A stretch of 64,000 bases of DNA from Candidatus Hermodarchaeota archaeon (GTDB lineage: Archaea > Asgardarchaeota > Hermodarchaeia > Hermodarchaeales > Hermodarchaeaceae), in contig JAEOTO010000006.1 in the NCBI GenBank assembly GCA_016839805.1, positions 1 through 64,000 of the forward strand, read 5' to 3'. Made by a program: the position numbers and the translations under genes. Positions 11,503 to 55,353 of the stretch are shown one piece after another (position 1 is the first letter of the stretch; each line of letters opens with the position of its first letter). The notes beneath the pieces were generated by a model that had not been told where the DNA came from, ran no database searches, and was given only the letters and a program-made list of their open reading frames with translations.

Positions 11503-13002
11503 CTAGGCTTGCTGTTGTAGTGTCGTTTGAATAAACTCCGCTAGTTTGCTGATTTTGACCAGCTGCTCTTCCCCTGTCTTCATATTACGGACATTGACCG
11601 ACTTCTTTACAAGTTCTCGAGGTCCAACGATGACCGCAAATGGAATCTGTCGTTTACTAGCATCATCAAGATGTTTGGTTAGCGACCACGAAAAACCGTT
11701 GAAAATTGTTCGTATCCCCTCTGCTCGGAGTTGTGAGGCTATTTCACGGCAAACACTGAGTTGTTTCTTTGAAACTGGGGCTAAATAGAGGTCGGCAGGT
11801 GGATCTGGTGATGGAAGCAGCTTCATTTCCTCAGCAAGCTCTAAAATGACAGTCTCACCGAAACCAAATCCAGTTCCAGGCAACCGCTCTCCTTCAAAAA
11901 TACCGACGAGATCGTCGTAGCGTCCTCCACCTGCAATTGCTCGGGGTATTCCGCTCCTCCTGTCCCAAGCTTCAAAGACGATGCCCGTATAATAGTCAAG
12001 GCCACGAGCTATTCCTGCATCAAATTCACAAACATTCGTTATACCCAAATCATCCAATTGAGTGGCTAGCTGGCTTAGGGGTTTTAGAGCTTCTTGAGTT
12101 GCTTCATCTAATGCTAATTCTTCCATGGTTTGAAGAAACTCTTTTGGTGCCCCTCGAATCGCAGAGAAATTTGCAAGTTGTTCCGCTGCCTGCTGGGCTA
12201 TACCAATTTTTCTAAGGGTTTTGATGAGCGCCTCACGTTGGAGTTGTGGGAGGTTTGTTTTCAACTCATCAATTTGTTTTGAACGGGGAAGTTTGGGTTC
12301 TCCTTTTTGTTTTCCAATATAGAAATGACGGAGTTTGAGTGCAATTCCTTCCGCTTTCTTTACAGATGTACCTGCATTTCTTAGTTGATTAACGATGGAT
12401 TCTTGTAAGAGTTTTTCGCGGCGGTCTAATACACGGATAATATCAATATAATTAGTTAATCCCAGTGATTCGATGAAGCTTTGCATTAGGCGGCGGTCAT
12501 TGATACGTATTACGAAATCTTTGGGCGTGAAATTCAGCCTTTGAATAATTGCTGCAAGTACGTTAATGACCTCTGCATCAGCGGCAACATCTTCGGTACC
12601 CAATATGTCGACATTTAATTGCCAAAATTCCTTGACGCGTCCGCGCTGTTGGGTCTCATCTCGAAATACGCGTGAAATTGAAAACCACCGAATGGGACGT
12701 GGGTAATATTGCTGCTGAACCGCTAGCATCCGTGCAAGGGATGGAGTTGTTTCGGGACGTAGTACGAGTTTTCGGTCTTTACGATCTGTAACTTTGAAGG
12801 TCTCTTCAACGAGTGAGGGTCCTGATTTGAGCTGATACAATTTCAGTGGTTCCACGGTTGGGCACTCATACTCTATATAACCAAATAATTTTGGAATTTC
12901 ACGAAAGGCTCGGAGTATTCTGTCGATTTTACTATAGAGTTCAGGATAGAAATCTCGAAATCCACCCACTGCTAGCTCTTTTCCGCGTTTCATATTCGTC
13001 AA
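11503..13002 (-). CDS. hisS: Histidine--tRNA ligase with enlarged insertion domain
   Basis: GFRDF, LRPETT, motif 2 FRDETQQRGR..EFWQ, RGLDYYTG, GGGRYD, C-terminal anticodon-binding domain. Confidence 0.96.
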   Translation of the reverse strand: MTNMKRGKELAVGGFRDFYPELYSKIDRILRAFREIPKLFGYIEYECPTVEPLKLYQLKSGPSLVEETFKVTDRKDRKLVLRPETTPSLARMLAVQQQYYPRPIRWFSISRVFRDETQQRGRVKEFWQLNVDILGTEDVAADAEVINVLAAIIQRLNFTPKDFVIRINDRRLMQSFIESLGLTNYIDIIRVLDRREKLLQESIVNQLRNAGTSVKKAEGIALKLRHFYIGKQKGEPKLPRSKQIDELKTNLPQLQREALIKTLRKIGIAQQAAEQLANFSAIRGAPKEFLQTMEELALDEATQEALKPLSQLATQLDDLGITNVCEFDAGIARGLDYYTGIVFEAWDRRSGIPRAIAGGGRYDDLVGIFEGERLPGTGFGFGETVILELAEEMKLLPSPDPPADLYLAPVSKKQLSVCREIASQLRAEGIRTIFNGFSWSLTKHLDDASKRQIPFAVIVGPRELVKKSVNVRNMKTGEEQLVKISKLAEFIQTTLQQQA

Positions 13003-13047
13003 CTCATTTTCGTATTCTTCACTATTATCTATGTTGATAGTGAAAAA

Positions 13048-13204
13048 TGGTGCCGGGACAGGGATTCGAACCCCGACCTAAAGCTATCCGCATCCCATCT
13101 ATACTAATGGGATTCCACAGGCTTCAATGCTACCATTGCGCCTGGGTAATTACCAGTTTACACCTTCGGGAGCTAGTTATTATGATAACTAGCAATATCC
13201 CGGC
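13048..13204 (-). tRNA. tRNA-His(GUG) with three introns (8/9, 15/16, 37/38); CCA encoded
   Basis: Removing 13196-13165, 13157-13136 and 13114-13086 gives a 74-nt cloverleaf: GCCGGGA TG GTGT AATGGTA GCAT T GAAGC CTGTGGA GCTTT AGGT CGGGG TTCGAAT CCCTG TCCCGGC ACCA. Each junction has a 4-bp helix flanked by 3-nt bulges. Confidence 0.9.
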
Positions 13205-13378
13205 ACGGTGCCCCGGCACAAAGAATGGTTGAACAGAACTCTCCCAAAAAAACCTTTCCTCTCCTCCTCTTAAACCTATACAATATTACCATATCTACTA
13301 TACTGCCATGCCACTCTATCGGTGAATATAGAGCGGGAAAAATACGGATTTTAAGCGCGTTTGAAGGGAAGGATGGAG

Positions 13379-45194: not shown

Positions 45195-46508
45195 TCATCT
45201 CTTAGCTATTCGTTTCCTTATAATATCTAGAATTTTGTGTGAGGCTTTGAGTTTTAGGGTCTTTGAAATATGAACTGCTTTTTTCTCTGTATCAATTACG
45301 AATAGCTCATTGGTCTCTGTACCAAATCCGACTCCTGGTCGACCCACATCATTAGCCACTATCAAATCCGCTTTTGCTTTTTTTAATCGTCGGTGTGCTC
45401 TCGCAATCAATTCTTCGTTTGAAACAGAGTGTTCTGCTTTGAAAAGTACAAGATAGGTTGTTTTTTGCCATTTTTTTATTGCGTCAACGATTTTTGGAGT
45501 TGGTTGAAATGTTACTGAAAGCGTGGCAGCTTTTTCTGTGGGCACTTTTATTTTCCGTGGTTTTTTAGGCGTCCAATCCGCAACTGCTGCAGCAGCAATT
45601 ACTACATCAAAAGATTCAGCCTTTAGCTCAGATGCGACGGCATCATACATCTCTTGAGTTGTATCAACCTGTACAATCTTCACCCCTTCTGGTGGAGAAA
45701 GCGATCCACAGCCATAAACAAGGGTAACATCAGCGCCTCGTTCATAAGATGCTCTCGCTAATTCTATCCCCATTCGTCCTGAACTTTTACTAGTTACAAT
45801 CCGTACAGGATCAATATATTCGACCGTTGGTCCTGCAGTGATTAAGATTCGTTTGTGTGTGAAATCATGTTTCGTTCCAAGTTTTTTGATAATGGTGGAA
45901 ACCACTTCAGTTGGCGTAGCAATCTTTGCTTTGTCTTCCTCTAAGCGTGGACCCACAAATACAACTCCTACTCCCTCCAGCTTTTCGATGTTCTCTTGAA
46001 GAATTGGGTGTTTATACATGGACGCATGCATTGCAGGAACAATCATTATCGGAATTCCTGCCCCAAATGCAGTAGTAACCGTTGATGTTACAGGAGTATC
46101 ATCAATACCCATCGCTATCTTGGATATCGTATTAGCCGTTGCAGGTGCAACCAGAATCAAATCCGCTTTTTCTGAATGATCACCAGCTAGGGCGATATGT
46201 TCGATCTTACCAGTTAATTCAGTAACCACAGGATTGCCTGTCGCCCATTCCATGAGATACGGATGGATGATGAGATGAGCTGCCTCAGAAAACACAACCA
46301 CAACCTCTGCGCCATGTCGCATCAACAGACGTGCTATCTCTGGGCTCTGAACCGCAGCGACACTTCCTGTAATTCCTAATACTATCTTTTTTCCACGAAG
46401 TTCCGTACCCAGGGACTCAACGATGTCCATTGAGGGATGTTTGCTGCTTCTCATTATCACCACATCTAGTTTTGTTTCATTTCTCCTTCTTAATGGTAAG
46501 TATGACAT
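45195..46508 (-). CDS. coaBC: Bifunctional PPC decarboxylase/PPC synthetase
   Basis: GITGSVAA, APATANT, PAMH..M, TAGPT.E.IDPVR, SSG.MG, AAVAD, FKAE; true start likely downstream. Confidence 0.95.
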   Translation of the reverse strand: MSYLPLRRRNETKLDVVIMRSSKHPSMDIVESLGTELRGKKIVLGITGSVAAVQSPEIARLLMRHGAEVVVVFSEAAHLIIHPYLMEWATGNPVVTELTGKIEHIALAGDHSEKADLILVAPATANTISKIAMGIDDTPVTSTVTTAFGAGIPIMIVPAMHASMYKHPILQENIEKLEGVGVVFVGPRLEEDKAKIATPTEVVSTIIKKLGTKHDFTHKRILITAGPTVEYIDPVRIVTSKSSGRMGIELARASYERGADVTLVYGCGSLSPPEGVKIVQVDTTQEMYDAVASELKAESFDVVIAAAAVADWTPKKPRKIKVPTEKAATLSVTFQPTPKIVDAIKKWQKTTYLVLFKAEHSVSNEELIARAHRRLKKAKADLIVANDVGRPGVGFGTETNELFVIDTEKKAVHISKTLKLKASHKILDIIRKRIAKR

Positions 46509-55251: not shown

Positions 55252-55353
55252 AGCCCGGTAGTGTAGTGGTCAATCATCCGAGGCTCTGGGTCCGTCACTA
55301 TAATACGGTGGAGACACCTTGGGACCGCGGTTCGAATCCGCGCCGGGCTACCA
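55252..55353 (+). tRNA. tRNA-Gln(CUG) with a 26-nt canonical 37/38 intron (55290-55315)
   Basis: AGCCCGG/CCGGGCT acceptor (A1-U72), CGAGG CT CTG G|A CCTTG, TTCGAAT, ACCA; BHB helix CTCT/GGAG. Confidence 0.95.

Follow-up and report, generated by a model that had tools for sequence, protein, structure and literature searches.

Multiple-intron transfer RNA (tRNA) genes of the Thermoproteales have reportedly been described by Sugahara et al. in 2007 and 2008 and by Fujishima et al. in 2010. The subject here is a gene of this general kind in an Asgard archaeon: a tRNA-His(GUG) gene that is interrupted by three inserts, interpreted here as introns of the bulge-helix-bulge (BHB) type, and that is preceded by a leader containing a near-exact copy (termed here the decoy) of the 5' strand of its own acceptor stem. 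The gene lies within a 64,000-nucleotide (nt) stretch of DNA from a Candidatus Hermodarchaeota archaeon (positions 1 to 64,000 of contig JAEOTO010000006.1, assembly GCA_016839805.1; this whole stretch is termed here the window). As summarised in PMC4090602 and PMC4033280, Thermoproteales multi-intron tRNAs resemble it in having up to three BHB or relaxed-BHB introns, in using D-arm sites, and in being served by a broad-specificity (αβ)2 splicing endonuclease (EndA); the intron positions reviewed there are 20/21, 22/23, 25/26, 29/30, 30/31, 45/46, 53/54, 56/57, 59/60 and, within the acceptor stem, 3/4. They differ in belonging to a different phylum, in that this position list, which is open-ended ('etc.'), does not include 8/9, and in that neither review describes a leader decoy.

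Closer counterparts are found among the Asgard archaea themselves. Three complete Asgard genomes have introns in 92-95% of their tRNA genes, over half with several (2024, PMC11291895), and up to five introns per gene have been reported, together with the observation that annotators miss D-arm introns (Goswami et al. 2026 preprint, 10.64898/2026.10.13.758758). A three-intron tRNA-His is tabulated in PMC11291895 for Atabeyarchaeia-1, as are four-intron genes. Given these published examples (2024, 2026), an Asgard tRNA-His gene with three introns does not represent a new kind; the statement in a first-pass annotation of the window that triple-intron tRNAs are described mainly from Thermoproteales is likewise outdated, inasmuch as a single Asgard tRNA gene can contain up to four or five introns. 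The published Asgard genes share with the gene described here the presence of several BHB introns, many of them at non-canonical D-arm sites, and two EndA paralogues consistent with an (αβ)2 enzyme. They differ from it in three respects: Hermodarchaeota, to which the host belongs, are not named in the text of either report; the earliest intron offsets in the examined part of the PMC11291895 table are 15-24 nt, with 8/9 absent, versus 8/9 here; and neither report mentions leaders or a duplicated acceptor strand (the word 'leader' occurs 0 times in the preprint). Full-text literature searches likewise returned no account of a leader in which the acceptor strand is duplicated. Leader or trailer pairing does help to build the BHB in the split and permuted tRNAs of Nanoarchaeum equitans, Caldivirga maquilingensis and Thermofilum pendens (PMC4090602, PMC3218864), which are similar to the present case in this regard; here, by contrast, the gene is contiguous and colinear, and the predicted partners of the leader are the 3' acceptor strand and exon 2, so that it does not itself form the motif that is cut.

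This analysis makes it highly probable that the locus is a functional tRNA-His(GUG) gene--the only one found in its genome--with three BHB introns, and that it would be processed along the pathway proposed below, in which the decoy most likely acts by pairing. Removal of segments of 32, 22 and 29 nt reduces the 157-nt gene to 74 nt and leaves exons of 8, 7, 22 and 37 nt; this agrees exactly with the segmentation given in the first-pass annotation, including its very short exons 1 and 2. ARAGORN folds the spliced sequence into a complete cloverleaf, tRNA-His(gtg), and our own cloverleaf scoring selects the identical three introns, located at positions 8/9, 15/16 and 37/38 (Table 1). The pieces that are kept are, in order, GCCGGGAT, GGTGTAA, a 22-nt piece that includes CTGTGGA, and a 37-nt piece with the 3' end ..TCCCGGCACCA. 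Because the 74 nt count the genome-encoded CCA, the tRNA body is 71 nt long; its D-loop has 7 nt and its variable loop 4 nt. The spliced anticodon loop, CUGUGGA, contains the GUG anticodon within 7 nt, as well as U33 and a purine at position 37. All four exons are colinear inside the 157 nt, that is, the gene is neither split nor permuted.

BHB geometry is seen at all three sites where removal of an insert restores the cloverleaf, and the helices, bulges and inner stems that had been quoted for the three introns are all present in the sequence, an agreement far beyond chance. (The arrow ↓ marks a junction.) The intron-1 motif (BHB1) consists of the helix CGGG/CCCG, the bulges AT↓A and AA↓G, a 9-base-pair (bp) inner hairpin with the stem GCTAGTTAT/ATAACTAGC, which is offset by 1-2 nt, and an outer helix of 4 bp, 3 of which are G-U pairs. 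The intron-2 motif (BHB2) has the helix GTGT/GCGC, the bulges AA↓A and AA↓T and a 4-bp inner stem, CTGG/CCAG; its outer helix is absent, making it a relaxed motif of the HBh' type. The intron-3 motif (BHB3) has the helix CTGT/GCGG, the bulges GG↓A and AT↓A, an inner stem (ATCCCAT/ATGGGAT) of 7-8 bp and, as its outer helix, the anticodon stem. The intron-3 boundary is ambiguous by 1 nt (A/A), and it is the bulges that fix it at the canonical 37/38. For BHB1 an alternative register, GGGA/TCCC with the bulges TAT(T) and GAA, forms a neater helix, but was rejected because it leads to the wrong spacing between acceptor and D-stem after splicing and because its A7-T pair is not conserved (A in genomes G013 and G017).

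Comparison with related genomes provides natural alleles of the gene. A scan of species-representative genomes for the exon-3 pattern identified 17 contigs with the same gene, as well as two intron-less tRNA-His genes from DPANN archaea. The 17 contigs come from Hermodarchaeota/Promethearchaeota metagenome-assembled genomes (MAGs), some of which are labelled Odin- or Thorarchaeota; the host lineage is that of a Hermodarchaeota-type Asgard archaeon, represented by a MAG of 2.31 Mb that is 86.7% complete. Twelve other genomes of the same genus contain full-length orthologs that are 82-95% identical to the gene and that have three inserts at identical places. In a sister genus, G015 retains introns 2 and 3 and lacks intron 1, G017 retains introns 1 and 2 and lacks intron 3, and G016 and G018 retain intron 2 only. 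The loci without intron 1 (L014, L016 and L017) have the exact junction GCCGGGAT↓GGTGTAA, and those without intron 3 (L015, L016 and L017) the exact junction CTGTGG↓AGCTTT; these intron-less junctions are the very ones predicted from the BHB bulges. The spliced RNA of the gene is expected to read GCCGGGAU-GGUGUAAU-GGUAGC and CUGUGG-AGCUUU. As far as sequence goes, this presence and absence in nature is the strongest evidence that the inserts are introns.

The patterns of conservation and divergence within the orthologs are of the same kind. The exons are invariant over 16 orthologous genes of the two genera, and BHB geometry was found for each of the three introns in every ortholog that carries it. 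Intron interiors diverge while retaining their pairing: mean pairwise identity falls to 0.53 in the hairpin of intron 1 and to 0.65 in that of intron 3. The intron-1 hairpin is 6-10 bp long in every ortholog with intron 1 and is built from unlike sequences (variants include GCTAGTTAT, GCTGGTA, GCCAGTG, TCAATGAT, GGCCGATCAA and GCTGGCTCC); its CGGG/CCCG central helix is intact in 11 of 13 genes; of the remaining two, one has a G-U pair and the other a mismatch. Within the 13-sequence alignment 97.9% of cells pair, versus 37-51% when the partners are slid. The inner stem of intron 3 has two pairs with compensatory double changes, and intron 2 is present in all 16 orthologs, with helices 3 and 4 being 100% paired.

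That the locus might instead be a decaying tRNA pseudogene, whose 'introns' are insertions that are never removed, is suggested by the failure of tRNA finders there and by the missing G-1/C73 identity pair usual for tRNA-His. This explanation must nevertheless be regarded as extremely improbable, given that the exons are invariant across 16 genomes and two genera while the intron interiors change yet keep their BHB geometry, that intron-less alleles with identical exons exist, that the gene sits directly upstream of the histidyl-tRNA synthetase (HisRS) gene, and that no other tRNA-His gene turned up in the host genome, the full-length gene being single-copy per genome in the relatives as well. 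The first-pass annotation had proposed a check for another tRNA-His; a scan for T-arm and anticodon-loop sequences of the 86.7%-complete MAG found no second one.

Several further observations concern the history of the introns. The T-arm and intron-2 loop sequences group G015 with G018 and G016 with G017, a grouping that implies that introns 1 and 3 were each lost (or gained) at least two times. Intron 2, which is preceded by a 7-nt exon, is never missing among loci L001-L017. In G013, G007 and G011 the 3' end of intron 1 (corresponding to the region 13165-13170, minus strand) reads ..CCCGAT, mimicking an ancestral ..CCGGGAT↓GG junction.

The decoy, GTGCCGGGG, lies 13 bases 5' of exon 1, and its sequence complements the 3' acceptor strand together with A73 and C74. 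It is present in 13 of 13 orthologs with intron 1 and in 0 of 3 without; in those three, the real exon 1 takes its place relative to a conserved upstream element. This element reads GGAAAG(C/G)TTTTTG in relatives and lies 26 nt from the decoy, an equal spacing leading to the real exon 1 in the sister-genus genes without intron 1; judging from the spacing of archaeal TATA boxes and B-recognition elements, it is a putative promoter. Decoy variants among the orthologs are GCCGGGGC, GCTGGGAC and GCCGGGTC; in addition there is a 1-nt deletion in G012, and the G009 copy is GCCGGGAT. In the helix between decoy and 3' acceptor strand, 98.3% of the alignment cells pair, and almost every change is compatible with pairing (three C-to-U changes produce U-G pairs, and four G-to-A changes A-U pairs). 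A second leader segment, GCACC, can form five pairs with exon 2, predicted to serve as an outer helix next to the 3' splice site of intron 1, for which 97-100% of cells are paired; changes on the leader side are nearly all pairing-neutral.

The same arrangement recurs elsewhere in the host genome. Position 8/9 is not unique to tRNA-His, because two tRNA-Leu genes also use it. The first of these, tRNA-Leu(UAA) (C22:29030-29137, plus strand; L052/L053), has a 23-nt intron at 8/9 with a strict hBHBh' motif (helix GGGG/CCCC, inner stem TCTAC/GTAGA); an exact copy of its GCGGGGG strand occurs 42 nt upstream, and its leader, too, is predicted to form extended pairing with exon 2. The part of the leader that separates the copies is conserved, with an apparent hairpin that shows compensatory differences among relatives (GGGCG/CGCCC versus GGGAC/GTCCC). 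The second, tRNA-Leu(CAA) (C46 at about 45215-45445, plus strand), appears to have four introns (at 8/9, in the anticodon stem, in the 37/38 region and in the T-arm) and has an upstream GCGGGGG copy as well. In a census of the host's tRNA genes by our own cloverleaf scoring, which solved 26 genes (with a few models wrong; C13:18757, for example, is really a tRNA-Phe), a 7/7 match of the leader to the gene's own 3' acceptor strand was found only for His and Leu(UAA), the other 24 genes reaching at most 6/7; tRNA-Leu(CAA), outside the census, is a third 8/9-intron gene with a decoy. Among relatives, tRNA-Leu genes with an 8/9 intron have a perfect 7/7 copy, at -40 to -43, in 11 of 12 cases (6/7 in the twelfth), versus a leader match of only 2-5/7 in nine tRNA-Leu genes without the 8/9 intron. 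In other words, full complementarity of a leader 7-mer to the 3' acceptor strand was found here only in genes whose first intron uses acceptor bases in its central helix.

Since the intron's CCCG is able to pair with either copy, and since the upstream copy in G009 is identical to exon 1, it might be supposed that the upstream copy is the real, or an alternative, exon 1--in which case GCCGGG.. would be joined to exon 2 and an intron of about 45 nt, holding the downstream copy, would be removed. This too is very improbable: the upstream copy is variable, its position 8 being C instead of U in most cases, whereas the downstream GCCGGGAT is invariant in 16 genes; the inner hairpin abuts the bulge of the downstream copy, not that of the upstream one; and the upstream copy of tRNA-Leu is followed by C or A rather than by U8-A9.

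Folding predictions point instead to pairing as the role of the decoy. As the first-pass annotation had pointed out, the intron-1 motif uses acceptor bases 3-6 and must therefore compete with the cloverleaf; indeed, when the 157-nt gene is folded without the leader, the acceptor stem has a probability of 0.96 and the BHB1 helix of 0.04. With the leader included, the minimum-free-energy (MFE) structure pairs the decoy with the 3' acceptor strand, A73 and C74, pairs GCACC with G9-U13, and thereby leaves C3-A7 paired with the intron's UCCCG. The decoy's pairing with TCCCGGCAC is predicted, in both the MFE structure and the ensemble, with probability 0.99. Across the orthologs, folding with the leader gives the BHB1 helix a probability of 0.72-0.99 in 10 of 13 cases, as against 0.00-0.23 without it; shuffled leaders of equal G-rich composition, which are still able to pair with the C-rich 3' strand, yield intermediate values of 0.00-0.70. 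In silico, then, the leader copy resolves the competition between acceptor stem and BHB1. The annotation's claim that introns 1 and 2 share exon-2 bases also stands: the BHB1 outer helix and the BHB2 central helix both need G10-U13, for which reason the two motifs are mutually exclusive and cannot coexist. Ordered splicing, which had been taken as implied by this sharing, is made plausible by it for introns 1 and 2.

There is a somewhat better than even chance that the leader of 8/9-intron genes is a functional device, in which a stand-in for the 5' acceptor strand and an exon-2-pairing segment would hold the precursor in a non-cloverleaf form and would free bases 3-6 for the BHB central helix, giving EndA access to an intron that the highly stable acceptor stem would otherwise conceal. 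The principal alternative, possible but on the whole unlikely, is that the decoy has no function and is a leftover of the original exon 1, dating from the partial duplication or insertion that made intron 1 and still there solely because that event is recent. Such an origin would explain why the decoy's place relative to the promoter-like element is that of the real exon 1 in intron-less alleles, why intron and decoy are always co-present or co-absent, as from a single indel, why intron 1 ends in GAT in three orthologs, as in the ancestral ..GGGAT↓GG junction, and why the decoy is only moderately more conserved than its flanks. It fits less well with the occurrence of the same arrangement in unrelated tRNA-Leu genes, where the distance is different (-40 to -43) and the spacer is structured, with the fact that the decoy remains at 0.89 identity, nearly all of its changes preserving pairing, while the intron hairpins have diverged to 0.53, and with the prediction that the BHB1 helix does not form without the leader. 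A classical target-site duplication as the origin of intron 1 was ruled out, since what lies between the two copies is the spacer, not the intron.

A number of points weigh against a functional decoy and against the motifs as drawn. Decoy conservation, at 0.89, is only moderately above that of the flanks (0.78-0.79); covariation cannot prove the decoy's pairing, because its partner, a strand of the tRNA, is invariant and changes can occur on one side alone; and, the orthologs being close relatives, there are few independent events, namely tRNA-His and the tRNA-Leu pair. Three of the 13 orthologs (G006, G002 and G017) have the BHB1 helix outside the MFE structure even with the leader, the helix lying 1-2.3 kcal/mol above the optimum in G006 and G017. 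The model, moreover, keeps the decoy bound in preference to the real acceptor strand after all introns have been removed, so that its release must depend on factors that are not modelled (tertiary fold, proteins). BHB1 itself is relaxed, in that 1-2 additional unpaired bases separate the 5' bulge from the inner hairpin, and with the leader helix in place the 3' site of intron 1 falls not in a strict 3-nt bulge but in a 4x2 internal loop. In BHB2 the outer helix is missing, and in the nearest-neighbour model the probability of its helices is near zero in every context.

The pathway favored here, in which the decoy is functional, would run as follows. The precursor would start a few bases (1-5 nt) upstream of the leader copy GUGCCGGGG. 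The decoy would then most likely pair with the 3' acceptor strand, and GCACC with exon 2, so that formation of the cloverleaf would be delayed until intron 1 is excised; meanwhile, acceptor bases 3-6 and the intron's CCCG would form the central helix of intron 1. An EndA of the (αβ)2 type would cleave each intron in both 3-nt bulges, with intron 2 probably being cut after intron 1 because it needs the same exon-2 bases, and RtcB would join the exons. Ribonuclease P (RNase P) would remove the leader, the CCA being already encoded. Splicing itself, the order of its steps and the role of the decoy are things that we infer from sequence; of 22 sequencing runs returned by a search for the locus, none is on record as RNA.

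Table 1. Features of the tRNA-His locus and its surroundings (window coordinates)
Feature	Coordinates	Strand	Description or basis
tRNA-His(GUG) gene	13204 down to 13048	minus	157 nt, three inserts
Promoter-like element, AAAGG + T7	13246..13257	minus	Sequence; conserved in all orthologs
Decoy GTGCCGGGG in leader	13211..13219	minus	Near-exact copy of tRNA -2..+7 (real: GTGCCGGGA)
Leader GCACC, predicted exon-2 (G9-U13) partner	13207..13211	minus	MFE and ortholog pairing
Exon 1, GCCGGGAT, tRNA positions 1-8	13197..13204	minus	Invariant in 16 orthologs
Intron 1, 32 nt, site 8/9	13165..13196	minus	Central helix C3-G6/CCCG, bulges AT↓A and AA↓G
Exon 2, GGTGTAA, positions 9-15	13158..13164	minus	Invariant in 16 orthologs
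Intron 2, 22 nt, site 15/16, D-loop	13136..13157	minus	Central helix G10-U13/GCGC, HBh' type
Exon 3, positions 16-37, anticodon GTG	13115..13135	minus	Segmentation and ortholog alignment
Intron 3, 29 nt, canonical 37/38	13086..13114	minus	hBHBh' type
Exon 4, positions 38-73, discriminator A73, and encoded CCA	13048..13085	minus	Sequence
T5 run after CCA	13043-13047	minus	Sequence
HisRS gene	11503..13002	minus	Pfam tRNA-synt_His 4.6e-51, HGTP_anticodon 1.2e-18

The enzymes that this pathway calls for are encoded in the host genome. Two EndA-family (PF01974) genes, of 186 and 198 amino acids (aa), occur outside the window, at C26:78271-78525 and C22:24271-24531, in agreement with the pattern published for most Asgard genomes. 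The 186-aa protein is nearest to the catalytic alpha subunit of Aeropyrum pernix (3P1Z_B, 1.7e-45) and, by sequence reading, keeps the Tyr/His/Lys residues; the 198-aa protein is divergent, resembles beta subunits (3P1Z_A, NEQ261) weakly and, again by sequence reading, lacks the catalytic His. By these features the host's EndA is (αβ)2-like, the type that cleaves relaxed motifs at non-canonical sites (PMC5829648, PMC4033280), and it is a candidate for cutting the non-canonical motifs seen here. RtcB is encoded at C22:7173-8483 (571 bits), and an archaeal RNase P RNA at C22:267787-268163 (minus strand, 173 bits).

The HisRS gene begins about 46 nt downstream of the tRNA gene on the same strand, and the interval between the two, up to the ATG, is conserved among same-genus relatives; tRNA-His and its cognate synthetase are possibly co-transcribed. 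The upstream neighbours are an eIF1/SUI1 gene and a gene for an ArsA/Get3-like ATPase.

In most archaea and bacteria the G-1 of tRNA-His is encoded opposite C73, and in eukaryotes it is added by Thg1 opposite A73. The gene described here does not encode G-1 and so lacks the usual G-1/C73 pair: its discriminator is A73, and 15 of the 16 orthologs have T at position -1, the remaining one having A. The DPANN tRNA-His genes (L039 and L046) differ in carrying the usual G-1/C73. No Thg1 (PF04446) was found in the host, nor in 18 further genomes from its family, whose completeness is 72-91%. The mature tRNA may lack G-1, or may acquire it by some other route.

The suspicion in the first-pass annotation that standard finders may miss this gene was borne out. 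ARAGORN, run on the window with or without its intron mode, does not detect the unspliced gene, nor does Rfam at the gathering score, RF00005 giving only a partial 19-bit match. The intron-mode 'His' calls that ARAGORN does make at C22:150034 (gtg), C22:165381 (gtg) and C13:18754 (atg) were rejected by eye as other tRNAs, namely tRNA-Gln(UUG), tRNA-Leu(GAG) and tRNA-Phe(GAA), respectively, each with non-canonical introns. More generally, the census, rough as it is, indicates that tRNA genes of this genome typically have non-canonical and multiple introns. The window also contains tRNA-Gln(CUG) at 55252-55350 (plus strand), which has a 26-nt canonical intron and which both ARAGORN's intron mode and RF00005 (44 bits) find; a default tRNA search of the window returned zero tRNAs, this one included among those missed.

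The gene provides a Hermodarchaeota case of the heavy interruption recently recognised in Asgard tRNA genes, and it illustrates how standard finders drop essential tRNAs from Asgard genomes, the only tRNA-His found here being invisible to ARAGORN and Rfam. Its allele series--introns 1+2+3, 2+3, 1+2 and 2 only--constitutes a clean comparative system for the gain and loss of archaeal tRNA introns. If functional, the decoy would show how a BHB can form even though half of the motif is locked within the acceptor stem, and it would be relevant to intron-finding software, which ignores leaders. It would, in that case, be an undescribed cis-acting RNA device, one that dictates in which order splicing and 5' maturation take place and that explains how archaeal tRNA introns could colonise sites beside or inside the acceptor stem.

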